This document shows positions 20,576 through 63,467 of a stretch of DNA of 64,000 bases, one piece after another (position 1 is the first letter of the stretch; every line of letters starts with the position of its first letter). The translations under genes were made by a program, and so were the position numbers. Below the pieces are notes generated by a model, which was not told the origin of the DNA, ran no database searches, and was given only the letters and a program-made list of their open reading frames with translations. Source of the DNA: an uncultured Candidatus Saccharibacteria bacterium (lineage in GTDB: Bacteria; Patescibacteriota; Minisyncoccia; Phycocordibacterales; UBA9973); contig CAYHBR010000001.1 in assembly GCA_964354985.1 (NCBI GenBank), positions 18,407 to 82,406 of the forward strand, written 5' to 3'.

Positions 20576-21562
20576 TTATTGTAATGTTAATTCTTGCCTT
20601 ATCTTATATCCATTACCATGTTTCAGAAAACCCAAATATGATTGGACTATGTTTTCTTTTCTACCACTTTTCTGAATACACTTCCACATTCTTCGTTTAG
20701 TTACCGTTCGGAGCACTTTATGCCTATGGAAATGAACCCAGCCGAGAAAATCCACGCCAGAAGCCAAGGTTTTTATAAAAACTTTGTCGGGGTGCAGAGA
20801 TAGCTTCAAATTTTCGGTCAAAAAAACTGATATCTGGGACAAGATGGTTTCAAGACTTTTCTTGTCTTGTGACAAAAAGACAAAATCATCAGCGTATCTG
20901 ATGTAGTGTCTTGCTTTCAGCTTATGCTTCACGAACTGGTCAAACTCATTCATATAAATATTTACTAGGATTTGAGAAGTAAGGTTGCCGAGTGGTAAGC
21001 CTTTACCTTTTTCTATTGAATGAAAGCTCATAATAATTTTGGACAATAACCATAGGATATTTTGGTCAGGGATATAACTTGTCATAATTTTAGTTAGCAC
21101 CTCTTGGTCTATCGAAGCAAAAAACTTTCTGATGTCACATTTCAAAACCCAGACTGTCTTTGTATTATTTTTTGAAACGATATTTGAAAAAGCCTCAAAT
21201 CTACTCATCGCCTTGTGTGTTCCTTTTCCTTTTCTACAAGAGAAAGAATCGGAAATAAATGTCTTGTCGAAAAATGGGTATAACTTACGATAAAGTGCAC
21301 GGTGAAGCAACCTATCTCGCACGCAAGCTTTGTGTATACTCCTGGGTTTTGGATCTGAAATATTAAAAGCTTTGTACGGTGAATGTAAATATGTTTTATT
21401 GTAAAGATCATTGTGAAGCGCAATAATATTACCCATAAGGTTTCTCTGAAATAATTGAACATCTTTTCTTTGTCTCTTCCCTTTTACAAATTCACCCCAT
21501 GCTTCAAGCAAATTTTCAAGCGATATGATATCTTGGTATGTATGATCGAATTTAATTCTCAT
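20576..21562 (-). CDS. DGR reverse transcriptase (RT-1)
   Basis: 328 aa. Group-II-like fingers/palm with YADD (RYADDFVF). Motif 4 reads GLPLGNLTSQILVNIY, the DGR hallmark, not the group II intron QGxxxSP. There is no En domain. An adjacent TR/VR pair is present. Confidence 0.85.
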   Translation of the reverse strand: MRIKFDHTYQDIISLENLLEAWGEFVKGKRQRKDVQLFQRNLMGNIIALHNDLYNKTYLHSPYKAFNISDPKPRSIHKACVRDRLLHRALYRKLYPFFDKTFISDSFSCRKGKGTHKAMSRFEAFSNIVSKNNTKTVWVLKCDIRKFFASIDQEVLTKIMTSYIPDQNILWLLSKIIMSFHSIEKGKGLPLGNLTSQILVNIYMNEFDQFVKHKLKARHYIRYADDFVFLSQDKKSLETILSQISVFLTENLKLSLHPDKVFIKTLASGVDFLGWVHFHRHKVLRTVTKRRMWKCIQKSGRKENIVQSYLGFLKHGNGYKIRQELTLQ

Positions 21563-21575
21563 TCCTTAAATATTA

Positions 21576-21585
21576 CCCCCCCCCC
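21576..21585. repeat. C10 homopolymer (G10 on the RT coding strand) about 14 nt upstream of the RT-1 ATG
   Basis: cccccccccc seen directly. The same arrangement recurs upstream of RT-2. Confidence 0.9.
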
Positions 21586-21616
21586 GAGCACTTTTACCAG
21601 TTCTAGGCAGTTTTAA

Positions 21617-21940
21617 AAATCTATATATTTTTGGTACGCTATTTATCAAATATTACCAAAAGCACACAGGCACACTCTGGGACAAAGGATTGACACGCTA
21701 TTTATTGAAAGTATTGAAGCAATTTCAATTGCCAGTTTTTTATCACGACAAGAAAAGCAACCATATGTTCGTGTTGCTATTAGAAAAATCGACACTTTAA
21801 AAGTGTTACTCATGATACTCTGGGAAACCAAATCTATAGACGATAAAAAATACATCGCCCTCTCGGTAAAGCTCGAAGAAATTGGAAAGATGCTCGGCGG
21901 CTGGAATGGACAATTAGCAAAACAAAACTCTCCCAAATAG
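21617..21940 (+). CDS. Avd-like accessory protein (four-helix-bundle / 23S rRNA IVS protein family), plus-strand, with no canonical ATG at the head of the frame
   Basis: A 107-codon open frame ending ..ALSVKLEEIGKMLGGWNGQLAKQNSPK. It is collinear with the plus-strand ORF at 47638..47961 (KLEEVGKMFGGW), and the differences between them are mostly synonymous. The ...ELxxQL...KLEEVGKML.G motif is typical of Avd/IVS proteins. Confidence 0.55.
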   Translation, partial: KSIYFWYAIYQILPKAHRHTLGQRIDTLFIESIEAISIASFLSRQEKQPYVRVAIRKIDTLKVLLMILWETKSIDDKKYIALSVKLEEIGKMLGGWNGQLAKQNSPK

Positions 21941-21960
21941 AGGGAGAGAAATGAAGAGAG

Positions 21961-22087
21961 TTGCGAAACGGCAAACGCGAACCCGTTCTCACGATTCCAC
22001 CTGTTATCAGGCTTGTCATAGTACGCATTGAGCCAACGACCATCGTCGTTACGGTTCGCGTTGAGCAAGTTAGGATCGCCATCGGAA
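21961..22087 (-). repeat. DGR-1 template repeat (TR-1); the ORF-track ORF 21646..22068 is a non-coding artefact of it
   Basis: 127 bp aligning to 22424..22550. About 15 mismatches, all at plus-strand T in this copy (A in the minus sense) against C or A in the other copy. Confidence 0.85.
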
Positions 22088-22342
22088 CGCGCGAGATATC
22101 ATCCGTGCCACCACCCTTTGAGTTCTCTCAGGATTGTATTTTATTCGGCATCGCAATGCCTCAATGTCTCGCGCCAAGTATCTTCGTTTTTGCAGGTTAC
22201 ATGCACTACTCTATCCGAAACCATGATCGCGGATACACTCAATGCAAGGATACTGGGTTCGGTAGCGCCCAACCGTGATCGTGCGCATATTCACCTACTG
22301 CCATCGGCAATTATATCGTATTTTATATTTTATGAAAAAAAT

Positions 22343-22370
22343 AGTCCCCGATTTAAAAAATCGAGGACTA
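22343..22370. other. Hairpin downstream of the target-1 stop (AGTCCcCGATTT-aa-AAATCGaGGACT). A second small palindrome, AGAACTgaAGTTCT, is at 22385-22398, immediately 3' of the VR
   Basis: Inverted repeats seen directly. DGR VRs are commonly followed by a stem-loop. Confidence 0.45.
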
Positions 22371-22405
22371 AGGACTAAATGCAAAGAACTGAAGTTCTGA
22401 GCATC

Positions 22406-23029
22406 TTAATTTTGAGTACTAACTTGCGAAACGGCAAACGCGAACCCGCCCTCACGATCCCACCTGCTATCAGGCTCGCCATAGTACGCAAAGAGCCAAC
22501 GACCACCGCCGAAACGGTCCGCGCTGAGCAAGTTAGGATCGCCACCGGAATCCTTGATCGGTTCGTGCATAGCAACGATCCAGATAAGCCCCATTGCTTC
22601 GATCTCCTCGTCTGTGAACTTTTCACGGATGAGACATGCGATCTCAGCGTTTGGTGTTTCCAATTTGCGATTGGCAGCTTCGCTACGGATCTTCTTAGTG
22701 ATACGGTTGTTGTCTTCGAACAGCATCCCTTTGAGTACCGCAACTTCGGTTGTTATTCCAGAAGTAGGCTTGAAATCTTTTGAAAGTAACACACTCTTAG
22801 CATAATCGCTGAGGCGGTATCCTTTTTTCTCAAGACGCACAATCCATTCTGCCCCGGTAGCGCCGTCAGAAATGACATTGAAGTAAATTACTCCATCTTT
22901 TTCTGTCCAGCTCCTTGCCGGTTCTGCAATAGTGATTTCACCACGAAGGAATCTATTAACTCCTTCTTCTCCACCAAGTTTGTTCCATACGGCTTCTACT
23001 CGGCCAAATGTAATATCAGGATATTTCAT
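22406..23029 (-). CDS. DGR-1 target (variable) protein, 207 aa, with a C-terminal CLec-like variable region (VR-1 at 22424..22550)
   Basis: The C-terminus ..RFGGGRWLFAYYGEPDSRWDREGGFAFAVSQ.. is encoded by VR-1. Residues 1-207 are homologous to the C-terminal ~200 aa of the 613-aa target at 48482..50323. Confidence 0.8.
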   Translation of the reverse strand: MKYPDITFGRVEAVWNKLGGEEGVNRFLRGEITIAEPARSWTEKDGVIYFNVISDGATGAEWIVRLEKKGYRLSDYAKSVLLSKDFKPTSGITTEVAVLKGMLFEDNNRITKKIRSEAANRKLETPNAEIACLIREKFTDEEIEAMGLIWIVAMHEPIKDSGGDPNLLSADRFGGGRWLFAYYGEPDSRWDREGGFAFAVSQVSTQN

Positions 23030-25239: not shown

Positions 25240-27288
25240 TTAACTGGCTTTTTGGCCTTCAAATATTTTGACTCTCGCCTTTTCAAGTCGTTTGTTGGCA
25301 TCGGAGAATTTTTCGTAAATTTCGATTTTTTCAGATGGATATTTTTCAGATGAAATTTCGGTTAGTTTTTCTTCAAGTCTTTTTAGCATTTCTTCGATAT
25401 ACATCCCGTCTGTTACGTCAGCGTCTTTTTGGGCACTAAATCCTTCTACTTTGGATAGTTTGTCAAAGAGAATCTTCATAGATGAATTGTCTTGATTTAT
25501 GAGGTATTTTCGATTATTCAAAAAATTAATTCTTTCATCCTCATTTTTCTTTATAAGTTCCTCCATTTTATTTATTGCTTCGGCATGTTTTGCTTTACTA
25601 TCTAAAAATCCCAATTTTTTATTTTTCAATTGTGTAAGTTTTATTTTTTCCTCCAGAATATCCAGATCTTTCACACCTATTTTACCAGTGTAATCACCTA
25701 TTTCTTCAAACTCTTTTCCAAGTTTGGGAACATTCAAAGTTATTCCGACAGATGGGATTTTGAAATAGATTTTTTCACTCATTTGCCCGTCAAAACGACC
25801 CATACTATTCCTAACAGTTTGAAGTGCCCAGTCTGCATTTTCCTTTCTGTTTTCAGTATTTTTAATTTCGCGAGCAATTTCTTCGGGATATGTGTTCATT
25901 TCTCTACTTTGCATATAGATCATATTTTGATCAACGCCGGCATCAACAAAATCATTTATATCATTTTTTTCAACCTCTTGTTTCTGCATTTTTTCTTCAA
26001 AATATTTCTTCAACTCGCTCGGAGATAGTTTGAGCGCTAGTGAGACTGGATTTTTTATTAGTGAAATTTTTCCGCCTAATTTCCGAGAAAGTGAATAGCT
26101 ATTTTCTACACCAAAATTTTCCTCCCAACCTACGCTATTATTTTTTGAACTAAATATTTCATTTATTTTTTCAATATCTCTTCCCTCAATGATTTCAAGC
26201 AAACCATCGTTGGCTTTTTGAACACCTTCCAAATATTCTCTCACTGAAACCAAGTCGACTACCGGACCATTGTCGTTGACTCTTTCTCCAAGTTCCTTAT
26301 TTATACTAAGAAGATTTTTACTTCCTGACTCAAAGCCAAGTGTTGAAATATGAGTGATTAATTTCTGGCCACTTTCACCGTAATAGCGCATAATTCTTTG
26401 GTAAATTTCGCTATCTTTATCTACAAAAACTCTGTTGTATCTTTCGTTGTATTCATGCAATTTATTTTCGCGGAATTCAGAAAACATCTTATAGGCTTCT
26501 CCTCTTTCAGCTTCGTATTTTTCTACTCTCTCTACATCTTGCCCAATAGCTTCCAGATTTCCTTTATTTTTGACCTCGTACATATTCGCGACCTTAGAAT
26601 GTAATTCGTTTTTTATTATAGCAAGAACTTTTTCTTGCTCTTCCTTTGGTAGCATTAATATTTCTTCTTTTTTCTCAATAATATTTAAATCCCATTTGCC
26701 ATTCTGCAAAGCGGAAAGACCGAAATAATGACTTAGGTTTCCCTCACTAGGTAGGTATTTATTAAGGATTGCTTCTTTCTCTTTTTCTTCGGCAACCCGT
26801 ATCCCTTCTTTAGTTTTAGTAAAGAGTTCTTCGACTGTTTTTTCTTTTTTTGACAAAGCTTCTTGATTTTTCTCTTTTTCTGTACTTAAAGTAATAACTT
26901 TTTCCTGCAAACTTTTCCATTCATTTTTTTCAGTACTGAAAACATCGCTGAAAACATCTTTGGTTTTCAATTTGTTATATAAAGCACCGTCATTGTCTGC
27001 GTTTTTGGCTTCGTTTACTACTTGACGACCACTTGAAATAATTCGGCCTCGCTCGCCTCTTACTTCACTAAGTGATGAAAATATTTCATCTCGCTTGTTT
27101 TGGATGTCTTCGAGCTCTGCTTTTTCTTTCTCGTATTCTTCTTGAACTGATTTTTCTTCATCTTGCTTTTTTTGTTTTTTGAGATTTTCTTCTTCCTGTT
27201 TCAAATTTTCCTGCTCTGTTTTTAGAGCTTGGATTTTTTCGAGCGAGGAAGGAATGCCACCTGGATTCATATACAAGAATAATACCAC
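25240..27288 (-). CDS. Large E/K-rich coiled-coil hypothetical protein (682 aa)
   Basis: Long ORF with strong heptad-like E/K/L composition and no signal peptide. Confidence 0.55.
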   Translation of the reverse strand: MVLFLYMNPGGIPSSLEKIQALKTEQENLKQEEENLKKQKKQDEEKSVQEEYEKEKAELEDIQNKRDEIFSSLSEVRGERGRIISSGRQVVNEAKNADNDGALYNKLKTKDVFSDVFSTEKNEWKSLQEKVITLSTEKEKNQEALSKKEKTVEELFTKTKEGIRVAEEKEKEAILNKYLPSEGNLSHYFGLSALQNGKWDLNIIEKKEEILMLPKEEQEKVLAIIKNELHSKVANMYEVKNKGNLEAIGQDVERVEKYEAERGEAYKMFSEFRENKLHEYNERYNRVFVDKDSEIYQRIMRYYGESGQKLITHISTLGFESGSKNLLSINKELGERVNDNGPVVDLVSVREYLEGVQKANDGLLEIIEGRDIEKINEIFSSKNNSVGWEENFGVENSYSLSRKLGGKISLIKNPVSLALKLSPSELKKYFEEKMQKQEVEKNDINDFVDAGVDQNMIYMQSREMNTYPEEIAREIKNTENRKENADWALQTVRNSMGRFDGQMSEKIYFKIPSVGITLNVPKLGKEFEEIGDYTGKIGVKDLDILEEKIKLTQLKNKKLGFLDSKAKHAEAINKMEELIKKNEDERINFLNNRKYLINQDNSSMKILFDKLSKVEGFSAQKDADVTDGMYIEEMLKRLEEKLTEISSEKYPSEKIEIYEKFSDANKRLEKARVKIFEGQKAS

Positions 27289-27338
27289 CTATGACACCAC
27301 TATCGATAAAGCCGGTGTGGATTTATATATATTATTTG

Positions 27339-27409
27339 AGCCGAGAGCGGGAATCGGACCCACGTTCCTACTTTACGAAAGTAGTGTTCTGCCACTGAAC
27401 TATATCGGC
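27339..27409 (-). tRNA. tRNA-Thr (anticodon CGU)
   Basis: Manual cloverleaf: acceptor GCCGATA (one mismatch with its partner strand), D-arm GTTC-AGTGGCA-GAAC, anticodon arm CTACT-TTCGTAA-AGTAG, T-arm GTGGG-TCCGATT-CCCGC. No CCA is encoded. Confidence 0.6.
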
Positions 27410-27466: not shown

Positions 27467-28015
27467 TTATGGTTGCTTTTTAGGGGTTTCTACTGGAGCT
27501 TCTTTTTTTACGGCTTGTGTCACTCCTTGAGATGGATTGATCGAGATCGGAGCAACATTGATTATCTTGTTAGTCGATGGACGATACAATATCGCTTTCA
27601 TCGCGGTGGTGTATGCGAACAGAACATCACCATTTTCAGCTAGTGTAAAAAAATCCTGTCCCTTTAGTTTTTCTTTATCTGAAATCGTGGCAACAGTAGG
27701 AACCTCATCTTTTGGTAATTCCATTAGCTTGCCAAGTGTTCCAACTAGTGTAGCTGTTTTTTTCTGCACTTCAATACTTGGATCTATTTTTAGAGCTTGG
27801 TATTTTTTATAATAATGGAATGAGCCGTATACACCGAGTATTGCAATCAGAAAAATCGTGGGTACAAAAAATTTCTTGTAACTTCTTTTTTTAGCAACAA
27901 TTTCTTTTCTTTCAATTATTTTTTCTTCTTGAATGCTTCCGTCTTTTGTATTCACCTCCTTCATATTTATTTCTTTCATATGTTTAAATAATATTAATAA
28001 TTTTATAATAACCAT
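27467..28015 (-). CDS. Single-pass membrane protein (182 aa) immediately downstream of the giant gene
   Basis: One TM helix (FFVPTIFLIAILGVYGSFHYY) and a ~120-aa extracytoplasmic domain. Its start codon is 3 nt from the giant gene stop, so they are probably co-transcribed. Confidence 0.6.
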   Translation of the reverse strand: MVIIKLLILFKHMKEINMKEVNTKDGSIQEEKIIERKEIVAKKRSYKKFFVPTIFLIAILGVYGSFHYYKKYQALKIDPSIEVQKKTATLVGTLGKLMELPKDEVPTVATISDKEKLKGQDFFTLAENGDVLFAYTTAMKAILYRPSTNKIINVAPISINPSQGVTQAVKKEAPVETPKKQP

Positions 28016-28017
28016 AT

Positions 28018-31000
28018 CTATTGTACAGGAACGGGAGAATCAACTACTGGCAACGGCGGGGCAACTTCTGTAACCGTCGGCACAACTTCAGGAGGAACCT
28101 CTGTTTGTACTGCTGTTATATCTGGGACCAAACCAATGTCTGGTGTCGGTATAGTCTCAGGAACAGGAGCAACCTCTGAAGTAGTGGAATCTGCTGTTGG
28201 TATATTAACATTATTAAGAAGTGTTTGCATCTGGTCACCGGTCACGCAAACTTCAGAACCATCTGATTTTTTAACACATATTTCTTCTGTGTGTACTTTT
28301 TTAGCAAATACTTCATCAAAGTATCCGCGAATAGCAATGACACGGGCGGACACAAAGTCGGTAAGAATTTTTGTTCCAGTTGCGACTTTTGCTTCAATAA
28401 TTGAAATAGGATTTTGAGCTATCTCGGATTGAACATCAGAAATGAGAGTTACCAATCCTTCTGTTGTAGAAATATCTCCCATCAAAAGCGATTGATCTTT
28501 CATTGAATATTTACCCGGCGAATATGTATTTTTTATAAAGGCGATTACTTGACCAACACCTTCTCCGCCAAAAGAAGTAAGTGCTTGTCCGATAACCATT
28601 CCATCTTCTGTTGCTTTCATTGCGACTCCCGGAGTCGTGGAGCTAGCAAGGAAATCCCCCGGTTCAATCACACCATTTTCAACAGAAACATTCATTGGAA
28701 CGCGACCAGAGAGTGCGACTGCAACTTGTGACGAGCCTATTCTTTTTCCATCATCAAGTATAAGTCCCGGCTGAGTAGAAACAACGCCTAATACTTCTTT
28801 ATCGTAAGTATTCGTTGTTCTTGTGACGCCTGACTCAAGTGAGTGATCTATTCTGACCAATTCTCCTGGTAGCAATCCCACATCACTCGTATTGTATATT
28901 TCAGCCAAATCAGCACCGCCTGTATTTGTAGAATTCGTTACCATTAGAAAACTTCCGGCATTGACAACGGGCGATGCGGCTACCGTTGCTACGTTTTGTG
29001 CAAATTGGAATTGGAGGTTTCCAGCGGTTCCAGCTGTCGTTACATATCCATGAACAAATACGCGCTGGGTTAATACTGCCGTTGTTGCAATAGCGCAAGA
29101 AGTTCCACTGGCAATAATATTACAATATGCGGAAGAGGTAGCAGAAATAGCATTAACTCCCTCCAGATTTATTGTCGCGCCGGCTGGAGTAGTGAATGTA
29201 TATTTCAAATCAGCAGTTGCATTTGATACGTTAGTATTAATACTTGCCTGAACATAATAAGTTGTATTTGCAGCCATAGCAAAAACTAATTCCGGATCAT
29301 TTAGAAAGACTGTCGAATTTGAAGTAGCCGTTGTCGGAGAAGCTTTTACTATATATTTACTGCCATCAGTATCGCAATTCTTCCAGGCTCCATTTTCATA
29401 ACAACGGAATTTATTTGAAGTAGTATTGTAATAAGTTCCACCATTTATACCAGCCGGATCAGCGCTCCCTGCGTCAAGCACCAATAGATCCGGTGTCGCT
29501 TTTCCAGTAATAGAACCGATTTGGATTTTACTTGATGTCGCTGTTCCGCCAGCCTCAAGAGTAATCGCGTTTGCGCCAGTTGTCGTAATTGTTCCTGCTC
29601 CTGCAAAAGTTAACCCTGTAGCTGATGTGCCAATAGTATCTATCGAGAGTACGCCGGTTAGTGCACCGCCTGTTGTGAGATTGAGTCCTGTTGAGGCAAT
29701 TGCCAAAGTATCGGAAGTAGAGCCCAACACAATAGTGTCAGTAGATGCCCCGTTTGTACCAATATTGATTGCGTTGTTTCCGCTACCAGTACCGATATTA
29801 ATTGTTTTTGAATCGTTGCCGTTTCCAATATTTACAGTTCCTGTTGTTCCAGAATCTAATGTCACTGAGCCTGTTGTGTCAGATTTTATGGAAACCACAC
29901 CGCCAGTACTAGCAAGCAATGTAATTCCGCCAGAACCAGAATATATATTGACAGTAGTTCCATCTGTAATATTACCAATTGTCACAGTTTTTCCAGAAGC
30001 ACCTGTTCCGATATTTACCGCACCAGTAGTTCCTGAGTCAACAGTTATATCGGAAGTTGTCGTTGAAGAAATTGTTCCCGCACTAGCAAAAGTTAGACCG
30101 GTTGCTGAAGCTCCGATTGTGTCGATAGAGGAGACACCAGTTATGGCGCCCGCACTAGAAACATTTAAACCAGAGGAAGTAACGACAAATGTCCCAGTTG
30201 CATTTCCAATAGCTGTATTTGATGATCCGGTTGTATTTATACTTGCCGTTCCACCAGAGACAGTAATGCCGGCGGACCCTATCAACAAGCCTGCGGAAGT
30301 AATTGTTCCTGACCCAGTTGAAGAAATATTTCCGGAAGTTGAAATAGCGCCAATTGAAGAGACGGAAGCAACTCCAGTTAGTGCGCCCGCGCTCGAAACA
30401 TTTAACCCGGAAGATAATAATGAGAACGTATCATCAGCTCCGTTACCAATGACTATTGTATTTACAGCGACACCATCACCAATGTGAATTGTTTTTCCAC
30501 TTGTTCCTGTACCAAGATTAACCGCACCCGTAGAACCAGAGTCAAGATTGAGAGCACCTGTTGTTCCTGAGGTTATTGAAAGAGCTGAGCCAGAAGCTGA
30601 AGTAATAGCGAGAGTGCTTCCGCCAGCGAGAGTTGTTGCACCTGTGCCTGTCAGTGTTGCGCTTCCTGCAGAAACTCCGAAACGAGTACTACCGCCGGTA
30701 ATAAAGTTTAAACCTTGAGCGTCTGTGGTTCCGAGAGAAGCAGAAGTTCCGAAAGCATTGCCCGACTGAACAAAAGCAAAAGAGTTAATTGTTGTTGCAG
30801 TGGTTGGAGTACATCCTAGACGCCATCTAGTAGCACCGGAATCGTACTGTGTACAGAAAGTTGTACCCGCTGGAATAATAACATCGGAACTAGTTCCAGT
30901 GATAATTCTATTTCCGGCAGTGGAGCTTGCAGACTCATTGCTTATCGTCAGATTGAAAGATGACGCATTCATAAACCGAATATACAAACCATCTACACCG

Positions 31001-34000
31001 CCTGCTATTCCAGTAAATGTTGCAGTATCAGTGCCTGTATAACGGATTAAACCACCCGAAGCTAACACAATATTATTTTGCACGCCTGTTGTTGCATAGT
31101 CAGTTCCTTTTGGTGTAATAAAATTGCCAGCAAAAGTTGAATTTCCGTTTACTGTTAAATTTCCGCCAGCAGTAATTAGTCCGCTTCCTGTAGTTATTGG
31201 TCTATTTGTTGTTGTATTAATACCGAGAGTGCCTGCACCAGTCATATTTAGGATCGAATCGTCCGCGACGAAAGTAAGGGCATTCGCATTATTAGTCATA
31301 ATCCCAGATCCAGTCGTAAAAGTATGACCTCCGGTAATAGCAACATCACCACCCAAATTTATTCCACCAGAACCACTATTTATATTTATAGCAGTTGATG
31401 TAGTAACATTTCCAATAGTAATATTTTTTGCATTTGCATTTGTTCCAATATTTATTGCACCAGTAGTTCCTGAATCTAAAGTTAGGATTCCAGTTGTTCC
31501 CGTAGAAACACTAAGCGAAGAACCATTGCCCGATGAAAGACTGGTAGTCCCCGCTCCAGATAAAGTAAGTGTTCCACCGGAAGACATACTCAAATTTCCT
31601 GCACCACTATCGGTGATACTTAAATTTTTCCCTGCCAAGTCTATCGTGCTATTTGCATCAACAGTCATCGAGTCAGATAGTTCACTAAAATCAAGAGCGT
31701 CGGTTAGACTTGAAGCAATTGATGACCATTTTATCCCTGTAGCTTGGGTAGAATCAGTGGTCAAAACAAAACCATTTGTAACACCAACAGGCAGTCTTGT
31801 TGAACTATTTACTCCGTTTCCAATAATTAAGTCACCTTTTGTCGTCACCGGAGAAAGTGCACTGAATGCAGAAGCAACTGTTGTTTGCCCGGTCCCACCC
31901 TGAGCAACACCCACTGTTCCGGTTGAAGTTAGATTTTTTGAAGCATCAGTAAATACAACTTTTGAAGCAGTAAGACTTGGGAGACTTACTGTACTACCGA
32001 GACTTATTGTCCCCGCACCTGAAATATTAAAATCTCCAGAAGCTAGAGCAAAAGAAATCGGGGTACTACTTGCGGTAGTGATTGTTGCATTGTTATTGTA
32101 AGCGCCTTGCATTGTGCTTATACCACAATCAGCCCAAGCACCTTGCACATAACAACGGAAAATACCGAGAGAATTGTTGTAATACATACTTCCGTTTGTA
32201 CCACCAACTGGGTCGCCGGTATCTGATTTTACATCAAGAGAAAATAAATCTGGAGTGACAGAACCGGCTCCGCCTGTTCCAATCTGAACTTTTCCTGTTC
32301 CTGTCCCAGCAGATTGCAATGACAATGTTCCGGTGCTTGTTCCCCACGTCGAAGCAGCGCCACCAGTCAAAGTCAAAGCTCCGCCTGAAGTAAAAGAAGA
32401 AGCAGATGTTGGAGTAAGATTTACTGCACCAGTTCCTGTTGCGGTGAAGTTTCCTGAAGAAAGTAAGATTGAAAGATCCGATGAAGACGTTGTAGTAATA
32501 GTTGAATTACTTACATATGCTTGTTGTAATGTAACAGCACTGGCAACAGAAGCACCGCAATCCTGCCATCCACCACCTTCATAACATCTAAAAGAATCAC
32601 GGGCGGCATTAAAATACATATCACCGTTATCACCAGTTGGGTCACCAGTTCCACTTGCGATACTTTTTTGATCTAAAGAAAATAAATCTGGAGTAGCAGA
32701 TGGTGCATCGTCGGCTCCAACATGCACGATACCTGTAGCTGAGCCATTTACACTTATAACCAAATCACCCGTACTCGTACCCCATGTCGAAGCAGCGCCA
32801 CCAGTCAAAGTCAAAGCTCCGCCTGAAGTAAAAGAAGAAGCAGATGTTGGGGTAAGGCTTACCGCACCAGCTCCTGAGGCAGTGAAGTTGCCTGAAGTTA
32901 ATACCAAACCTACATCAACCGCACCGGCAGTTGTAATAGTTCCTCCGCTATTATATGCACTTTGTAGTGATGTCGAGCCACCTGTTGTATCGCAGTCAGA
33001 CCAAGAACCATTTGTGTAACATCTAAATTTATTGGAATTTAGATTGTAATACATACTTCCGTTTGTGCCTTCGGCTGGATCTCCTGAATCTGATTTAACA
33101 TCGAGAGACAATAAATCCGGAGTAGTTGACCCTGCTCCGCCAACACCTATTTTAATAACACCAGTTGCGCCTCCGCCGGCTGACTGGAAAGTGATATTCC
33201 CTGCTGTTGTACTTAAACTCGAAGCAGCTCCTCCAACAAAAGTTAGTCCACTACTAGAAGTTATGCCAATAGCTCCAGCTGAACTATTTCCAATATTAAC
33301 AGCACCAGAAGATGTGCCTGTATTTATATTTGTTGCAAAATTACTACTAGCATTTATATTCGCTACTGCCCCAACCGCAGAAAGTCCCGCTGAAGCAGTA
33401 AAAAGTCCAGCCGAAGTCATTGTTCCAGTAGCTGTTGTAAAAATATTTCCTGAAGTTGTTAAATTGTCTCCCGCAGTTAAGGGCGATATTGTCGTGCCAA
33501 CTCTTTGAAATTTACTAGTGTTTGGACTCCAAGATAATCCTCCTGTGCCGTCAGTAATCAAGGCTTCCCCTAGTGCTCCGTCGGCGCTTGGCAATGTGTA
33601 TGTTGTTGAACCGGCAGTTGCAGGAGGAGCAAAACCAACATAGCCTGAAGTAGCGCCGGACAATCTAAGTTCGCCTTTTACATCAAGTGCTGAGCCTGGA
33701 ACTGCTTTTCCGATTCCCACTAAAGGATTTCCAAGACCGTCATCCATTATTCGCATTCTTTCTGAAGATGAGTCTGTTCCACTTGTAAAAAAAACAAGAG
33801 AAGTCCCTGTATCATTTGTTCCAATTACTAAATCACCGCCAAGTCCTCCAACTCCTCTCGAAACCAAGTAGGAATCATTTTTACCAGCTGGCGACCAACT
33901 AGCATCCGTAAAACCAGAAGAATTTATTCCCAAATCAACATACCCGCTTGTTTCACTTCCATTGTCTGCAGTTGCAACAATGTCTGAAGAAGCATTTGTG

Positions 34001-37000
34001 CCAGCATTACTGTTCTTAATGTTTAATTGTAAATAATTATTAACATCACCATATCCGCCGATTATATTGTATGAGGTACTTCCTGAAGGCATCACAACTT
34101 TCAAACGCTCTGGACTAATTGGATCAAAGATATCAGAACCGATCGCAAGATTTCCATTATTATCAATTATAAATGGAGATGTATCACTCGATGAATCATC
34201 TACTCGAAAACTATTTCCATTTCCCAAATTTGAAACAAATAACGGCATTGAAGCAGACGAAGCTAATGTTGTTGCTTTAACTATTGATGCCGTGCTATTT
34301 GCAGTCGATGCGATATTTTCACCAAAAGTAATTCCAGACTGACCGCTAGTTGCAAGTGACCAATTCCACACTTGTCCCAAATCCCCATTGTTGATTGTGT
34401 TTGTTGCAAGTGCTTCTGTTAGAGACGAAAGATGTGTTGCTCCATTAAATCCCCCGGAACAAGTAAGGACTCCAACTGTTCCATCTACACTACATCCAGT
34501 TGAGCCATAACCACCCATAAGATTGAGAGTACCAGATGCGCCCGGAGCACCAATATTTACGGTTGTTGCTGATCCTCCAATATTTAAAGCTGTGGCATTT
34601 GTATTAAAAAGATTTCCTGTTGCGCTTGTAGTAGAAATCGTTCCGCCATTTATTGCGGAGTTTGAAGCAGTGGTAAATAAACCGCTTGAATTGACTGACC
34701 AATTTGCAGAATTTAAAGAAAGAGAATCAAGACCACTTCCCAATGAAATAGTATCCGCAAGAGTATCATCTGTCCCTACATTAATAACGTTACCAGCATT
34801 TCCTGTTCCAATAGATATTGTTTTTCCACTTGTTCCTGTACCAAGATTAACCGCACCCGTAGAACCAGAGTCAAGATTGAGAGCACCTGTTGTTCCTGAG
34901 GTTATTGAAAGAGCTGAGCCAGAAGCTGAAGTAATAGCGAGAGTGCTTCCGCCAGCGAGAGTTGTTGCACCTGTGCCTGTCAGTGTTGCGCTTCCTGCAG
35001 AAACTCCGAAACGAGTACTACCGCCGGTAATAAAGTTTAAACCTTGAGCGTCTGTGGTTCCGAGAGAAGCGGTTGTTCCGAATTGATTGCCACCTTGTAT
35101 ATAAGCAAACCCCGAAAGTGTTCCGATTGTCGCAGGTAATACCACAATGCGCCAGCGACTTATAGCTGAATCATATTCAAGACCGATAGACACTCCTGCC
35201 GGAACAGTTTGATTTAAACTAGATGCCGTTACAATGCGATTGATATCCGTAGAACTTAAACTCTCGTTAACAAGTGTTACTGCAAAACTTGAAGCATTCA
35301 TTATACGGATTTGTTTTCCATCTGCTCCCCCAGTTATTCCCGTGAAAGTAGCTACGCCCAGTCCTGTATAACGGAAAAGATAGCCGGATCCAAAATCAAC
35401 ATCATTATGCGAACCTGTTGTTGCATAATCAGTTCCTTTTGGTGTGATAAAATCTCCTGAAACAGTCAAGTTGCCACTTAGAGTTTTTGCACCCGATATT
35501 GTCTGCGTTCCGCTTGTTACAAGTCCTCTGTTTGTTGCAGAGGCATCTGGAATATTCAATGTAAGAGTTCCTCCGAGCGAAGTCGGTGAACCTGAAATAT
35601 TTGCGTCTGTTCCGGATGTTCCTAGTGTTAAACCAATAGTTGAATTTACTAATTTATTATTTGCAATCGTCCCAGTAACAATATCGCCATTGACGATAGA
35701 GCCGGCGAGATTGAGTTTACTATATGCAACTGATGCACTTGCTGAAAGATCTCCGTCTACAATCGTTCCGTCTAATATTTTGCCTGTAGTAATTGCCCCA
35801 GTGCCAATAGTAATAGCACCAGCATTACTGACAGTTGCGTCGCCCGATGCTGTAACAAAAGTTGGAACACCAGAAACATTGGCGACCAGAAACTGACCCG
35901 AAGAACCTGCTGTAGTGGCAGAAAGAGCGCTCGTTCCATTGCCATAAAGTAAACCTTTTGTTGTAAATGTCCCTGATCCAGTTCCACCTCGCGCGACAGA
36001 AAGATTTCCGGAAGTAATAGCTCCGACATCGAGGGATGTTGTGCCGGCAGCGGTCAATCTACCTTGTGCGTCCACTGTAAAAGTTGGGACCAAAGTACTA
36101 GAACCATAGTCACCTAAAGTGACAGCAGTATTATTTAAAGCGAAAGTAATATTCCCCGAACCAATAAGCCTGTTCGTAAGTGTTCCACTCAATCCAACTC
36201 CAGTGCCTGCGAGCAGGTCACCGTTACCTGTATTTAACAAGCAAGTTGGACAATCAATATTTCCAGTAGTGGCTGAATAACTTATTGGTCCAACACCAGC
36301 TATTGAATTCCTCGCACGGGCATTTGTAAAATATTGATTTGTCCCTTCAGAAATATTACTTGTTGTTAAGCTTACCGCGCCAGTTAGGCCATTTACACTA
36401 GCAACATTTGTTCCCTGTTGAATACGATCCCAAGTTGCACCGTTGTTTAAAATCCAATCCCCAACCGCCCAAGTTGAATTGCCATCTATAGATGTGCTTC
36501 CTGCGACACTTACAATAAATAAATCTCCTGCAATATCAGGTAGTCCATTTTCTAGCCCACCACTAGCAAGAGGCGGTGTATTGGTGTCTGCATCCCAAAC
36601 TCCATCATATTTTAATGAACCAGTAATTGAGCTAGGTAATAATGAAGTATTTATCTTACCACCAACATCAAGAAGAGATATCCAAGAAAGATCGCCCGCA
36701 AGAACTGCGTGGTTGTCAGCAGTACCTGTCCCTAAGTCCGCAGGAACGATTGAACGAAAAGTGGGATTAGTGGAAACGCCATCAGTCGGTCCAAGTAAAA
36801 AATTGTTAGCAGCAACAATTTCTGAAAATACACCGCCACCTTTACATTCAAAGATAGTGCCGTTCCAGCTAAGCCTTTCGTTACTAGCACAAGTTGGGAC
36901 ATTTACTTTTAAGTCTGTCCCTGAAAAAATTAAACCATTACCGATGCTTATTTCTGAAGTATTATCTGATGACCCAGTTGGATTTCCAAGCAATTTACTA

Positions 37001-37605
37001 GCGCTAACACTTGGTAGTTTTGCAAAAGTGACGCTACCATTTAGAATTTTTGAAGAAGTAATAGCATTGCTTACAATAGAAAATGCGCCGGCACTACTCA
37101 TTGAGGCATCACCCGAAACGGTAACTTGGCTCGCCAAGTTTGAACCATCGCCGACAAGTATTTTCCCTGACGACAAAGAAGGTGAGAGTTTGTTATTAAA
37201 TGTCGTCCAATCTGTAGCCGAAAGCAATCCTCTTTTTATAGAAGAGGCAGAAGGAAAATTGAAAGTGTGAATATCTGAGCCGGAAACAATATTAAAATCG
37301 GTGCCGGTTGTCCCTGTGGTAAATGTTTGAGTAGAACCACTTTGACTGTTTAGAATTAAACTGGTTGGTATTATTCCGCAACTAGGACTTCCTGCGGTAC
37401 AATCTGGCTCTAGTGTAACTCCGGGCAAATACAGGGTTGCGTTGGCTATTCGTGGAGCTATTAGACTAAGACCAAAAGTAGATAGAATTAAAATAAAAAT
37501 TCCAAACATAGAAAAAACCGATTTGCGGTTTTGGATAAACCGATAATGAACCAAGTTGGAAATGACAAATTTCTTGAAAGATTTTTCTTTCATTTGACTA
37601 CACAC
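28018..37605 (-). CDS. Giant surface protein (3195 aa): an N-terminal signal/anchor, Gly/Thr/Ser/Ala-rich repetitive beta-solenoid-like modules, a C-terminal globular region and a Pro/Thr/Val-rich tail
   Basis: One uninterrupted ORF. N-terminal hydrophobic segment (FSMFGIFILILSTFGLSLIAP). Pervasive GxT/GS repeats. Four copies of a FRCY..G.W.DC module. ~250-bp exact internal DNA repeats. Only spurious antisense ORFs overlap it. Confidence 0.85.
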   Translation of the reverse strand: MCSQMKEKSFKKFVISNLVHYRFIQNRKSVFSMFGIFILILSTFGLSLIAPRIANATLYLPGVTLEPDCTAGSPSCGIIPTSLILNSQSGSTQTFTTGTTGTDFNIVSGSDIHTFNFPSASSIKRGLLSATDWTTFNNKLSPSLSSGKILVGDGSNLASQVTVSGDASMSSAGAFSIVSNAITSSKILNGSVTFAKLPSVSASKLLGNPTGSSDNTSEISIGNGLIFSGTDLKVNVPTCASNERLSWNGTIFECKGGGVFSEIVAANNFLLGPTDGVSTNPTFRSIVPADLGTGTADNHAVLAGDLSWISLLDVGGKINTSLLPSSITGSLKYDGVWDADTNTPPLASGGLENGLPDIAGDLFIVSVAGSTSIDGNSTWAVGDWILNNGATWDRIQQGTNVASVNGLTGAVSLTTSNISEGTNQYFTNARARNSIAGVGPISYSATTGNIDCPTCLLNTGNGDLLAGTGVGLSGTLTNRLIGSGNITFALNNTAVTLGDYGSSTLVPTFTVDAQGRLTAAGTTSLDVGAITSGNLSVARGGTGSGTFTTKGLLYGNGTSALSATTAGSSGQFLVANVSGVPTFVTASGDATVSNAGAITIGTGAITTGKILDGTIVDGDLSASASVAYSKLNLAGSIVNGDIVTGTIANNKLVNSTIGLTLGTSGTDANISGSPTSLGGTLTLNIPDASATNRGLVTSGTQTISGAKTLSGNLTVSGDFITPKGTDYATTGSHNDVDFGSGYLFRYTGLGVATFTGITGGADGKQIRIMNASSFAVTLVNESLSSTDINRIVTASSLNQTVPAGVSIGLEYDSAISRWRIVVLPATIGTLSGFAYIQGGNQFGTTASLGTTDAQGLNFITGGSTRFGVSAGSATLTGTGATTLAGGSTLAITSASGSALSITSGTTGALNLDSGSTGAVNLGTGTSGKTISIGTGNAGNVINVGTDDTLADTISLGSGLDSLSLNSANWSVNSSGLFTTASNSAINGGTISTTSATGNLFNTNATALNIGGSATTVNIGAPGASGTLNLMGGYGSTGCSVDGTVGVLTCSGGFNGATHLSSLTEALATNTINNGDLGQVWNWSLATSGQSGITFGENIASTANSTASIVKATTLASSASMPLFVSNLGNGNSFRVDDSSSDTSPFIIDNNGNLAIGSDIFDPISPERLKVVMPSGSTSYNIIGGYGDVNNYLQLNIKNSNAGTNASSDIVATADNGSETSGYVDLGINSSGFTDASWSPAGKNDSYLVSRGVGGLGGDLVIGTNDTGTSLVFFTSGTDSSSERMRIMDDGLGNPLVGIGKAVPGSALDVKGELRLSGATSGYVGFAPPATAGSTTYTLPSADGALGEALITDGTGGLSWSPNTSKFQRVGTTISPLTAGDNLTTSGNIFTTATGTMTSAGLFTASAGLSAVGAVANINASSNFATNINTGTSSGAVNIGNSSAGAIGITSSSGLTFVGGAASSLSTTAGNITFQSAGGGATGVIKIGVGGAGSTTPDLLSLDVKSDSGDPAEGTNGSMYYNLNSNKFRCYTNGSWSDCDTTGGSTSLQSAYNSGGTITTAGAVDVGLVLTSGNFTASGAGAVSLTPTSASSFTSGGALTLTGGAASTWGTSTGDLVISVNGSATGIVHVGADDAPSATPDLFSLDQKSIASGTGDPTGDNGDMYFNAARDSFRCYEGGGWQDCGASVASAVTLQQAYVSNSTITTTSSSDLSILLSSGNFTATGTGAVNLTPTSASSFTSGGALTLTGGAASTWGTSTGTLSLQSAGTGTGKVQIGTGGAGSVTPDLFSLDVKSDTGDPVGGTNGSMYYNNSLGIFRCYVQGAWADCGISTMQGAYNNNATITTASSTPISFALASGDFNISGAGTISLGSTVSLPSLTASKVVFTDASKNLTSTGTVGVAQGGTGQTTVASAFSALSPVTTKGDLIIGNGVNSSTRLPVGVTNGFVLTTDSTQATGIKWSSIASSLTDALDFSELSDSMTVDANSTIDLAGKNLSITDSGAGNLSMSSGGTLTLSGAGTTSLSSGNGSSLSVSTGTTGILTLDSGTTGAINIGTNANAKNITIGNVTTSTAININSGSGGINLGGDVAITGGHTFTTGSGIMTNNANALTFVADDSILNMTGAGTLGINTTTNRPITTGSGLITAGGNLTVNGNSTFAGNFITPKGTDYATTGVQNNIVLASGGLIRYTGTDTATFTGIAGGVDGLYIRFMNASSFNLTISNESASSTAGNRIITGTSSDVIIPAGTTFCTQYDSGATRWRLGCTPTTATTINSFAFVQSGNAFGTSASLGTTDAQGLNFITGGSTRFGVSAGSATLTGTGATTLAGGSTLAITSASGSALSITSGTTGALNLDSGSTGAVNLGTGTSGKTIHIGDGVAVNTIVIGNGADDTFSLLSSGLNVSSAGALTGVASVSSIGAISTSGNISSTGSGTITSAGLLIGSAGITVSGGTASINTTGSSNTAIGNATGTFVVTSSGLNVSSAGAITGVSSIDTIGASATGLTFASAGTISSTTTSDITVDSGTTGAVNIGTGASGKTVTIGNITDGTTVNIYSGSGGITLLASTGGVVSIKSDTTGSVTLDSGTTGTVNIGNGNDSKTINIGTGSGNNAINIGTNGASTDTIVLGSTSDTLAIASTGLNLTTGGALTGVLSIDTIGTSATGLTFAGAGTITTTGANAITLEAGGTATSSKIQIGSITGKATPDLLVLDAGSADPAGINGGTYYNTTSNKFRCYENGAWKNCDTDGSKYIVKASPTTATSNSTVFLNDPELVFAMAANTTYYVQASINTNVSNATADLKYTFTTPAGATINLEGVNAISATSSAYCNIIASGTSCAIATTAVLTQRVFVHGYVTTAGTAGNLQFQFAQNVATVAASPVVNAGSFLMVTNSTNTGGADLAEIYNTSDVGLLPGELVRIDHSLESGVTRTTNTYDKEVLGVVSTQPGLILDDGKRIGSSQVAVALSGRVPMNVSVENGVIEPGDFLASSTTPGVAMKATEDGMVIGQALTSFGGEGVGQVIAFIKNTYSPGKYSMKDQSLLMGDISTTEGLVTLISDVQSEIAQNPISIIEAKVATGTKILTDFVSARVIAIRGYFDEVFAKKVHTEEICVKKSDGSEVCVTGDQMQTLLNNVNIPTADSTTSEVAPVPETIPTPDIGLVPDITAVQTEVPPEVVPTVTEVAPPLPVVDSPVPVQ
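30491..30741. repeat. ~250-bp exact intragenic direct repeat, copy 1 (copy 2 at 34820..35070)
   Basis: An identical string runs from tttttccacttgttcctgtaccaagattaaccgcacccgtag... to ...gtggttccgagagaagc at both positions. It encodes the duplicated segment ..STRFGVSAGSATLTGTGATTLAGGSTLAITSASGSALSITSGTTGALNLDSGSTGAVNLGTGTSGKT.. Confidence 0.9.
34820..35070. repeat. ~250-bp exact intragenic direct repeat, copy 2
   Basis: See copy 1. A second repeat pair (~70 bp near-exact, ~120 bp similar) lies at 32342..32460 and 32780..32898. Confidence 0.9.
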
Positions 37606-37647: not shown

Positions 37648-37693
37648 TGCATTACTTATTCATAAATATATCCAAAAGTTGAGTGTAAGAAGG

Positions 37694-37766
37694 AGCCGTT
37701 GATCGGGATTGAACCGATGACCTCGATATTACCAATATCGTGCTCTACCAACTGAGCTACAACGGC
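37694..37766 (-). tRNA. tRNA-Thr (anticodon GGU)
   Basis: GCCGTTG-TA-GCTC-AGTTGGTA-GAGC-A-CGATA-TTGGTAA-TATCG-AGGTC-ATCGG-TTCAATC-CCGAT-CAACGGC-T. A clean cloverleaf. Confidence 0.8.
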
Positions 37767-46523: not shown

Positions 46524-47567
46524 TTAGATGGAAATGCGAGGGATTTTAGGTGGAAATTGCTGGGTTTTTGGTCCGATTTTGGTGGGTTTTCTAAAATTAT
46601 ATATAATCGTTTGCTTAAGTCGATGAGTATTCCCATGACTAAGTAATCCAATATAAGATGTTGTAGTTGCACCTGATTGTCTCTGTCTTAAATTTCTGAA
46701 CATTCTCTTTTTGGTAGATGTCCTTGGCACTCGATGGTACGGGAAATGCACCCAACCGAGAAAATCCACACCTGAGGCAAATGTTTTTATAAATACCTTA
46801 TCAGGATGCAAGGATAGATTGAGTCTTGTCTCTAGAAATGCCGATATTTTTGGCAGAACATCTTCTAAGTATTTTTTGTCTTTATGAAGGATAACAAAAT
46901 CATCCGCATATCTGACGCAGTATGTAATTTTCAAATCTCTCTTAAGAAAGTGATCGAACTCGTTCATATAAATGTTCACTAAAAGTTGGCTCGTGAGATT
47001 ACCAAGAGGTAGTCCGACGCTGTGCCTGTCTTTTGTGTTGAAACTGCCGACAATCTCCTTGAAAAGCCGTATTATATCTTCATCTCCCATTCGGAGTTTC
47101 AAAATATCTTCCAAGATTCTGTGATCAATATTCGCAAAAAACTTTCTGATGTCGCATTTCAGCACCCACATAGTCTGCGTATGATTTTTAGAAACCTTAA
47201 GCGCATAGTTTCGAAATCTATCAAGCGCGCGGTGTGTGCCTTTGCCTCGACGACATGAGTACGAATCAAAAATAAATTTGGTGTCAAAATATGGATACAA
47301 AATCCTATAAATAGCATGGTGGAGAAGCCGATCGCGGACACTTGCCTTGTGAATGTCCCGAGGCTTTGGGTCGTTGATACGAAAAGCTTTGTACGGACCG
47401 TGACGGTATGTCTTGTCGACAAGTTCACGGTGAAGGGCAAGTATATTATCGGTTAGATGCACTGAAAATTGGGCGACATCTTTACGGTTCCGTTTTCCGC
47501 GCAGGAATTCTCGCCACGCAACAAGTAAGTTTTCCACCGAAATGATATTATTGTAGGTATGAATCAA
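46524..47567 (-). CDS. DGR reverse transcriptase (RT-2); the likely true start is the TTG at 47567, and the ORF-track N-terminal extension reads through the poly-G tract
   Basis: 348 aa, about 65% identical to RT-1. Same GLPLGNLTSQLLVNIY and YADD motifs. Homology with RT-1 begins at ..IHTYNNIISVENLL.. Confidence 0.85.
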   Translation of the reverse strand: MIHTYNNIISVENLLVAWREFLRGKRNRKDVAQFSVHLTDNILALHRELVDKTYRHGPYKAFRINDPKPRDIHKASVRDRLLHHAIYRILYPYFDTKFIFDSYSCRRGKGTHRALDRFRNYALKVSKNHTQTMWVLKCDIRKFFANIDHRILEDILKLRMGDEDIIRLFKEIVGSFNTKDRHSVGLPLGNLTSQLLVNIYMNEFDHFLKRDLKITYCVRYADDFVILHKDKKYLEDVLPKISAFLETRLNLSLHPDKVFIKTFASGVDFLGWVHFPYHRVPRTSTKKRMFRNLRQRQSGATTTSYIGLLSHGNTHRLKQTIIYNFRKPTKIGPKTQQFPPKIPRISI

Positions 47568-47577
47568 CCGACTAATA

Positions 47578-47587
47578 CCCCCCCCCC
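47578..47587. repeat. C10 homopolymer (G10 in the RT sense) about 10 nt upstream of the RT-2 start
   Basis: cccccccccc seen directly, in the same position as at RT-1. Confidence 0.9.
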
Positions 47588-47637
47588 GAATTTCGTACAG
47601 CAACGCCTCGATCCTGAGCAGGATCAAAGAGGGATAT

Positions 47638-47961
47638 TTGATTTGGGTTAGTATTGTTCCGCATATTGCTAAAGGTGCTCGCTATACGATAGGTTCACGA
47701 ATTGAGAATAAATTCCTCGACCTGCTTGAACTTTCATACATTGCTTATTTTATAGAAAAAGATAAGAAAGAGGGAAAAATCACACAATGCATTTTAATGT
47801 TGGATACACTAAAGTTTCTTGTTTCTGTTGCATGGGAGGGTAAACTGATTTCAAATGCACACTGCGAGAATGTGGCATTGAAACTCGAAGAAGTCGGCAA
47901 GATGTTTGGTGGTTGGAAGAAAAATCTCGCAAATCCCGAAAAGAAAAACCGCGATCTATAA
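47638..47961 (+). CDS. Avd-like accessory protein (four-helix bundle / 23S rRNA IVS protein family), TTG start, on the opposite strand from RT/TR/VR
   Basis: 107 aa ..IAKGARYTIGSRIENKFLDLLELSYIAYF...VALKLEEVGKMFGGWKKNL. Conserved with the locus-1 frame with synonymous third-position changes. The antisense ORF-track ORF 47745..48149 has a low-complexity, nonsense-like translation here. Confidence 0.65.
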   Translation: MIWVSIVPHIAKGARYTIGSRIENKFLDLLELSYIAYFIEKDKKEGKITQCILMLDTLKFLVSVAWEGKLISNAHCENVALKLEEVGKMFGGWKKNLANPEKKNRDL

Positions 47962-47994
47962 AAACTATAGCAGTCGCGGAAAAGAAAATAGTTT

Positions 47995-48123
47995 CGGAGA
48001 CGGAACACGAACTTGTTGTCCGGATTCCACTCATTACCCTGTTTCGCCCAATTGTTGTTCAGCCACAAACCATCACCGTCGCGTTTGAGATTGAAGACGT
48101 TCGAGTTACCGTCAGAGTCAGTA
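47995..48123 (-). repeat. DGR-2 template repeat (TR-2); the ORF-track ORF 47745..48149 is a non-coding artefact of it
   Basis: 129 bp aligning to 48498..48626. About 21 mismatches at TR adenines (plus-strand T against C/A/G in the VR) and a single non-A mismatch. Confidence 0.85.
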
Positions 48124-48481
48124 TTTGTGCGGCATGCCATCTGTGTCACTGCCGACTTAAGCGCACCATGTGCCAGAAGCCGTGCTGTATTGGTATGCGT
48201 GATCTAACCCAGTAGGCGATCCTGTTGGATCGAAATCACCCAGCGCGTCGCACCAAGTTTTTTCTTTTTAAAGACCTCTATGTAAATCCTCCGCGAAAAG
48301 CCGTAACCGTTCGCGCTCTCAATCCACACGAAGTAAATTGGTCTTGAAAAACCGTAGCCGTTCAATGAAACCAATCTAGAAATAGTATACCAAAAAAACT
48401 GAACTCGCTTCGCGAGTAAATGCCAAAGGGTCAAAGAACCCAAGAGTCAAAGAATCAGAAAAATACAAAGAAACAATTGGT

Positions 48482-63320: not shown

Positions 63321-63381
63321 GGTCGCTTCGCTCCCTGTTTATGCACTCTCGCGTTTTATAGTCGCTTCGCTCCTTAAAACG

Positions 63382-63467
63382 CGGAGGATGTGAGATTCGA
63401 ACTCACGGTCCCATTACAGGACGACGGTTTAGTAAACCGTTGGTTTAAACCACTCACCCAATCCTCC
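63382..63467 (-). tRNA. Type II tRNA (long variable arm), Ser-like, with an apparent anticodon ACU
   Basis: GGAGGAT-TG-GGT-..-ACC-A-ACGGT-TTACTAA-ACCGT-CGTCCtgtaatGGGACCG-GTGAG-TTCGAAT-CTCAC-ATCCTCC-G. The GCU anticodon expected for tRNA-Ser reads ACU here. Confidence 0.6.

Follow-up and report, generated by a model that had tools for sequence, protein, structure and literature searches.

Identical tracts inside old, diverged modules of a giant fibre-like gene in an uncultured Patescibacteria bacterium, and their probable origin by gene conversion

The window analysed here is the whole stretch of 64,000 nucleotides (nt) at positions 18,407 to 82,406 of contig CAYHBR010000001.1 in GenBank assembly GCA_964354985.1, and all coordinates below are those of the window. 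A giant open reading frame (ORF) on its minus strand, at 28018-37605, contains both of the 2 pairs of direct repeats that are the subject of this report. An exact-protein look-up finds the product of the ATG start, 3191 amino acids (aa) long, on record, while the version starting at the upstream GTG gives no match. The protein is rich in Thr, Gly, and Ser (14.3, 14.3, and 13.1%, with 457 Thr codons). Self-comparison of the protein displays a modular mosaic, in which a module that we call M1 is present in two copies (aa ~679-993 and ~2125-2424), and a second module, T, occurs as a tandem set followed at a distance by a fourth copy. The parts on which the repeats lie are as follows, in the order of translation.

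28018-37605, minus strand: the giant ORF, 3195 codons from the GTG at 37605; the called gene starts at the ATG at 37593 and encodes 3191 aa
34771-35469, minus strand: module M1a, aa ~713-945, a small beta-sandwich-like part and then a Gly/Ser/Thr-rich repeat part
34817-35070, minus strand: copy B of the 254-bp repeat, aa 846-929 (SLGTTDAQGLNF...GTGTSGKTI), in module M1a
32125-33429, minus strand: tandem modules T1-T3, aa 1393-1827, ~145 aa each, with the end motif GDP..NG.MY(Y/F)N....FRCY..G.W.DC
32557-32991, minus strand: tandem module T2, aa 1539-1683
32786-32850, minus strand: the 65-bp exact core in T2
32125-32556, minus strand: tandem module T3, aa 1684-1827
32348-32412, minus strand: the 65-bp exact core in T3
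30442-31140, minus strand: module M1b, aa ~2156-2388, the paralogue of M1a, 1443 codons away
30488-30741, minus strand: copy A of the 254-bp repeat, aa 2289-2372, in module M1b
29374-29811, minus strand: T4, the fourth T copy, aa 2599-2744

The initial annotation of this stretch had named 2 repeat pairs inside the giant gene, calling both perfect in its title, and had allowed that the copies might prove to be non-identical. A repeat scan and direct comparison show the first pair to be exact, with 30491-30741 matching 34820-35070 at 251/251 positions and the maximal exact match reaching 3 bp further, 30488-30741 = 34817-35070, for a true extent of 254 bp. The copies are direct and in frame, offset by 4329 bp or 3 x 1443 codons. 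For the second pair, 32342-32460 and 32780-32898, the repeat is real, but at 108/119 identical positions (90.8%, 11 mismatches) the term near-identical was generous, and perfection is confined to a 65-bp core, 32348-32412 = 32786-32850, again in frame at an offset of 438 bp or 3 x 146 codons. Exact direct repeats of at least 22 nt number only 4 in the window, with lengths of 254, 65, 25, and 23 nt, the 25-nt one being the template repeat (TR) and variable repeat (VR) pair of a diversity-generating retroelement (DGR). The longest repeat expected by chance, from the formula log4(N^2/2), would be ~15-16 nt.

The modules that carry these repeats are themselves far from identical. Outside the tract, M1a and M1b have ~58% nt identity with a longest exact run of 17 nt, and their aa identity is ~35-75% per 20-codon window. 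Along the 4329 diagonal, the 254 nt are fully identical (100%); on one side of them identity is 50-80% over ~420 nt, and on the other it is at background. The T1-T4 modules, with a period of ~146 codons, have pairwise nt identities of 46-65%, with T2 and T3 at 65% overall, and Tandem Repeats Finder (TRF) returns 0 rows, reporting no tandem array. On these divergences, the M1 and T duplications are old.

The synonymous positions behave differently on the two sides of the tract borders. In the M1a/M1b flanks, the codons for identical residues mostly differ, examples of same/different counts per 20-codon window being 6/9, 3/9, and 2/5, while in the tract 84/84 codons are identical. The run of identity is far longer than the surrounding divergence would predict, at 254/254 against flanks of 58%, from which 254 straight matches would arise with P ~1e-60; and the synonymous sites are homogenised in the tract but not in the flanks. 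The same pattern is seen at the T2/T3 core, where a 10-codon window running from inside the 65 nt past its 3' end retains identical residues with 6/10 codons different. Because the 84/84 identical codons stand next to synonymously saturated flanks, protein-level selection is excluded, and no one age of duplication accounts for both the tract and its flanks. The initial annotation missed that the perfect tracts lie as islands within older, diverged duplications, and this makes them probable conversion footprints left by recombination, and not the simple units of a variable array.

A different account of the same contrast would be a single recent duplication whose flanks were driven apart by fast positive selection, or else selection at the nucleotide level on a DNA or RNA element embedded in the tract. 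Surface proteins often evolve fast, and the tract is conserved at every site. Positive selection on the protein does not explain flanks that are saturated at synonymous positions, however, and no Rfam family is found within the giant gene. Moreover, the tract encodes an ordinary Gly/Ser/Thr repeat segment, and the homologous stretch in a natural relative (L024, contig k141_2395977 of ENA ERZ27250635, taken up below) has only 66% nt identity to it. We regard either version of this account as very improbable.

Hence, with a probability of about three in four, we read the 254-bp and 65-bp repeats as gene-conversion tracts between old, diverged modules of the giant fibre gene. In this process, non-reciprocal homologous recombination between paralogous modules would recently have replaced one copy by the other, or would have kept the segment homogenised. 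As judged from the patterns in the sequence, conversion would have erased all differences within the tract, synonymous ones included, with the flanks staying diverged. The identical tracts would then, as a by-product, become substrates for unequal crossing-over, and this could yield in-frame products smaller or larger by 1443 aa from the 254-bp tracts, or by 146 aa, that is by one T module, from the 65-bp cores. The minimal length for RecA-type recombination in Escherichia coli is ~25-30 bp, and both 254 and 65 bp exceed that. An AddA-like protein of 1003 aa (UvrD helicase plus PD-(D/E)XK nuclease) is encoded at 53322-56333 on the minus strand, and this gene supports the view that double-strand-break recombination machinery is encoded near the giant gene.

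Several points weigh against reading the tracts as conversion footprints, or limit what that reading can say. The perfection of the tract holds in assemblies, where collapse by the assembler of a few single-nucleotide polymorphisms (SNPs) between the copies could contribute, and the independent contig support described below covers the outer borders of the repeat, not the inner junctions, for which a search with the central domain gave no 100% self-fragments. No close relative with the pre-conversion state turned up in the genome and metagenome collections. The flanks contain no long identical stretch that could seed a first conversion, which makes one recent event and homogenisation ongoing since the duplication equally likely. 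Finally, the recombination genes were surveyed in the window only; RecA is not encoded there and was not searched for beyond it.

How far the assembly itself can be trusted at such a repeat is a separate matter. The initial annotation had called short-read assemblies of this region unreliable. The concern is that the copies are not both present or not identical, through a mis-join, a collapse of copies, or a merger of 2 strains. The sequence comes from short metagenome reads assembled by SPAdes (a NODE contig), the 254 bp exceed typical k-mers and reads, and the bulge removal of SPAdes can wipe out SNPs that distinguish one repeat copy from another. Assemblies with k=31 do fragment exactly at the repeat, and to that extent the warning was sound. 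Logan contigs are built with k=31, which makes k-1 equal to 30 nt. Logan contig ERR3856788_32991 (13,476 nt) has 0 mismatches to the window and ends at 35041, which is 30 nt inside copy B. The corresponding prediction for copy A, that contigs should start at 30517, 30 nt inside it, was examined by a look-up of the C-terminal fragment (the translation of 28018-30516), and 2 Logan contigs were found to begin there, one of them ERR3856787_28307 with 0 mismatches over 12,500 nt. The graph therefore branches at both outer repeat borders in independent runs, entered from the outer unique flanks, and the sequence is truly common to 2 contexts.

SPAdes contig NODE_296 (ENA ERZ4201063, 71.5 kb) carries the identical 3191-aa gene, as does an NCBI/ENA contig of up to 94.6 kb, so at least 2 long contigs of different extent share it; NODE_296 terminates within the window, which therefore derives from another, longer contig, and the two have 0 mismatches in a comparison of 36 kb. 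A direct repeat with two copies allows one linear (Eulerian) path only, the assembled a-R-b-R-c, which tempers the charge of unreliability, although the number of traversals of the loop and the collapse of a few inter-copy SNPs remain uncertain with short reads. The reading frame is also open through both copies, which sit at homologous positions of paralogous modules, as a random mis-join would not produce. An assembly artefact of any of these kinds is, on this evidence, quite unlikely.

Relatives of the giant protein are distant. The closest genome match is a Candidatus Nomurabacteria metagenome-assembled genome (MAG) with 59% identity over residues 5-2024, and in the genome and metagenome collections none was found above ~62% identity. 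The giant protein is a singleton in 90% clusters, with no length variant found there, and a 47-nt exact piece of the tract is absent from the JGI metagenomes. A protein search with the M1 module was dominated by low-complexity words, and its results included neither the parent protein nor any variant. In the best-matching homologous genes, from a Nomurabacteria MAG (L005) and an Uhrbacteria MAG (L006), there is no exact repeat above 49 nt, and so the 254-bp tract is lineage-specific and may be recent. Other homologous giant genes do have in-frame exact repeats of 40-110 nt, and 5 of them in MAGs of the candidate phyla radiation (CPR) and others (L009, L026, L028, L039, and L041) contain, within the gene, exact repeats 65-110 nt long whose offsets are all divisible by 3. 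This distribution suggests that intragenic conversion is a frequent habit of the giant-fibre family, and repeats longer than those seen in the homologues would be under-represented by short-read assemblies.

One natural homologue, L024, is shorter. It has 70% aa identity to aa 587-928 and then passes directly to the counterpart of aa 2511-3088, so that one M1 module is joined straight to the C-proximal part. Its flanks are nearer to M1a (70%) than to M1b (58%), at a distance too great for a proper tree. The product with 1443 aa removed would have the order N-terminus, one M1, beta-repeat segment, T4, jelly roll, and autochaperone, and this is the module order of L024, so a deletion product of that kind would probably fold. 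As a separate observation, positions 1-2554 of the L024 contig contain the homologue in one frame, broken only by in-frame TGA codons at 214, 2083, 2206, and 2488, and 2 of the 4 align with Gly in the window protein; the pattern suggests an organism or phage in which TGA is recoded, as in code 25 or code 4.

L024 also bears on a functional interpretation, in which the tracts are kept in order to vary the length of the fibre in a programmed or selected way, as in the Periscope proteins. The tracts would then act as a recombinational switch of an attachment fibre in a presumed episymbiotic CPR bacterium, between a two-unit form of 3191 aa and a one-unit form of 1748 aa, or would change the number of T modules. 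The repeat offsets are in frame, the deletion product would mimic the natural one-M1 homologue, and in Periscope proteins DNA repeats of high identity are an established route to change in surface-stalk length (PMC8201768). If true, Patescibacteria would have a counterpart of Periscope-type length variation that works through dispersed repeats. What is missing is the array: TRF finds none, the T modules are only 46-65% identical, and the long repeat has 2 copies only, 4.3 kb apart. No variant appeared in any collection searched, and every contig with the gene encodes the same product. We consider a maintained switch unlikely. The suggestion in the initial annotation of in-frame expansion and contraction, with resulting size variation, keeps its mechanical part, in that the repeats are direct, intragenic, in frame, and long enough, while the variation itself is not borne out by any length variant found.

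As a whole, the protein belongs to no Pfam or NCBIfam family by profile search, and Pfam, NCBIfam, PHROGs, and PDB sequence searches give almost no matches. The features that could be assigned are these.

37438-37518, minus strand: N-terminal hydrophobic segment VFSMFGIFILILSTFGLSLIAPRIANA, read from the translation
36298-36678, minus strand: N-proximal domain, aa ~310-436, matching phage tail PHROGs (phrog_31460 'tail protein', E = 1.7e-11; phrog_29238, E = 2.7e-15)
33406-34608, minus strand: central domain, aa 1000-1400, assigned by homology search
28201-29370, minus strand: C-terminal region, aa 2746-3135, a TNF/C1q-like jelly roll and then a phi29 gp12-type autochaperone domain

The hydrophobic segment may be a signal peptide or a membrane anchor. 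The central domain has its homologues in 'tail fiber domain-containing' proteins of ~690 aa, of which many carry Peptidase_S74 (PF13884). At the other end, the autochaperone domain has the conserved pattern ADLAE.Y...VALSGRVP.KV...PGVAMKA, with an approximate boundary to the jelly roll, and the protein has the C-terminal intramolecular chaperone fold expected of phi29 gp12-type fibres. Some homologues of the C-terminal domain carry PF13884 or PF11962, while the C-terminal 460 aa of the giant protein have no Pfam match at E <= 1 and hence no profile match to PF11962 or PF13884. The AlphaFold2 monomer model of the M1 module is poor, with a predicted local distance difference test (pLDDT) score of 60 from a 9-sequence alignment and an unstructured tract region; it is uninformative, though compatible with a fold that depends on oligomerization. 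The best explanation of these matches is that the giant gene encodes a modular extracellular fibre built of phage-tail-fibre-like modules, in a Nomurabacteria-like Patescibacteria bacterium of the CPR. The analogy makes a homotrimeric fibre the most likely form of the protein, with folding that would be nucleated by the C-terminal intramolecular chaperone and an N-terminus that would anchor or export it.

The surroundings of the gene are those of a bacterial chromosome, the window encoding dnaG, rpoB, rpoC, trmD, RNase R, SMC, RNase III, nusB, radC, dsbA/B, thrS, gyrB, pheST, and the AddA-like helicase-nuclease. On the minus strand directly downstream of the giant gene there is an ORF of 182 aa at 27467-28015, with its start abutting the giant gene's stop codon, and then one of 682 aa at 25240-27288, neither with a family match; these may be partners of the fibre or accessory to it. 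A pair of tRNA-Thr genes on the minus strand, at 27338-27409 and 37692-37766 with anticodons CGT and GGT, brackets the giant gene together with the small downstream ORF. That could be a coincidence, the mark of a tRNA-flanked island, or a supply for the Thr-hungry gene. ARAGORN also calls a tRNA-Ser with anticodon ACT at 63381-63467 on the minus strand, which is unusual for bacteria, GCT being the norm for AGY codons. The stop codons of 29 large ORFs in the window are TAA in 20, TAG in 8, and TGA in 1, and the giant ORF has no in-frame TGA.

Two DGRs are present on the minus strand. The first, at 20576-23029, is complete, with a reverse transcriptase (RT) ORF at 20576-21562 (RVT_1, E = 2e-26), a TR at ~21955-22085, and a VR at ~22418-22548, located at the 3' end of an ORF of 207 aa (22406-23029) that matches no Pfam family; the mismatches between its TR and VR are all on TR adenines. 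The second, at 46524-50323, has its RT ORF at 46524-47627 (RVT_1, E = 6e-24), adjoining gyrB, with a TR at ~47992-48126 and a VR at ~48495-48629, the latter placed 3'-terminally in an ORF of 613 aa (48482-50323) for which Pfam has no match, and its mismatches are at TR adenines only.

With 2 RT genes and bona fide TR/VR pairs in the window, the question arises whether the repeats in the giant gene are another template and variable pair. The mismatch spectrum rejects this, the true DGR pairs of the window behaving as expected: the first repeat pair has no mismatch at all, and in the second the coding-strand mismatches involve A at only 6/11 positions, and in both directions. In addition, both copies are coding and lie at least 7 kb from either RT, and no exact match of at least 22 nt links the DGRs to the giant gene, such matches being limited in each DGR to its own TR/VR pair. 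We give this origin almost no credence, and gene conversion between modules is the reading that we carry forward.

On that reading, recombination between modules within the gene drives the evolution of this giant CPR surface fibre, and the short repeats of the homologues suggest the same for the family. This is relevant to how episymbiotic Patescibacteria diversify structures that probably contact the host. The locus is also one where short-read MAGs may misreport gene length, so that its practical value is to warn curators and to mark a place where fibre-length polymorphism may be looked for with long reads.

Among known systems, the domain content compares best with the phi29 gp12 pre-neck appendage and other trimeric fibres and spikes with a C-terminal autochaperone. 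As in those, a TNF/C1q-like, probably trimeric jelly roll precedes the autochaperone, and there are internal domains with homologues among the 'tail fiber domain-containing' proteins and in a phage tail PHROG. It differs in being encoded in a bacterial chromosome among housekeeping genes, in having an N-terminal hydrophobic signal or anchor, in being ~4 times longer, and in lacking a Pfam-level match to Peptidase_G2 or Peptidase_S74.

The Periscope proteins, such as SasG, Rib, and the SHIRT arrays of Sgo_0707, are built as tandem whole-domain arrays with identities of 82-100%, and their copy numbers are documented to vary among strains (Whelan et al. 2021, PMC8201768). The likeness is that of a long surface protein that could grow or shrink in frame through identical DNA repeats. 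A tandem array of whole domains at ~80-100% identity, by which a Periscope protein is recognised, is absent here, where identity among the tandem modules is 46-65%, the long perfect repeat has just two dispersed copies 4329 bp apart, and no variation is seen. The giant gene is accordingly not a member of that group, with a similar outcome being mechanistically possible.

The closest parallel for the tracts is intragenic conversion, or concerted evolution, in bacterial surface-protein genes. Shared with those are a perfect tract with abrupt borders inside diverged paralogous modules, homogenised synonymous sites, preservation of the frame, and a setting in a large repetitive secreted protein. 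What is different here is that the host is an uncultured Patescibacteria bacterium, that the modules are phage-tail-fibre-like and not Ig-like or other classic adhesin repeats, and that 2 small islands are homogenised, not a whole array. Such tracts are ordinary in surface-protein genes with repeats, and the giant gene adds a case to a known phenomenon without revealing a new mechanism.

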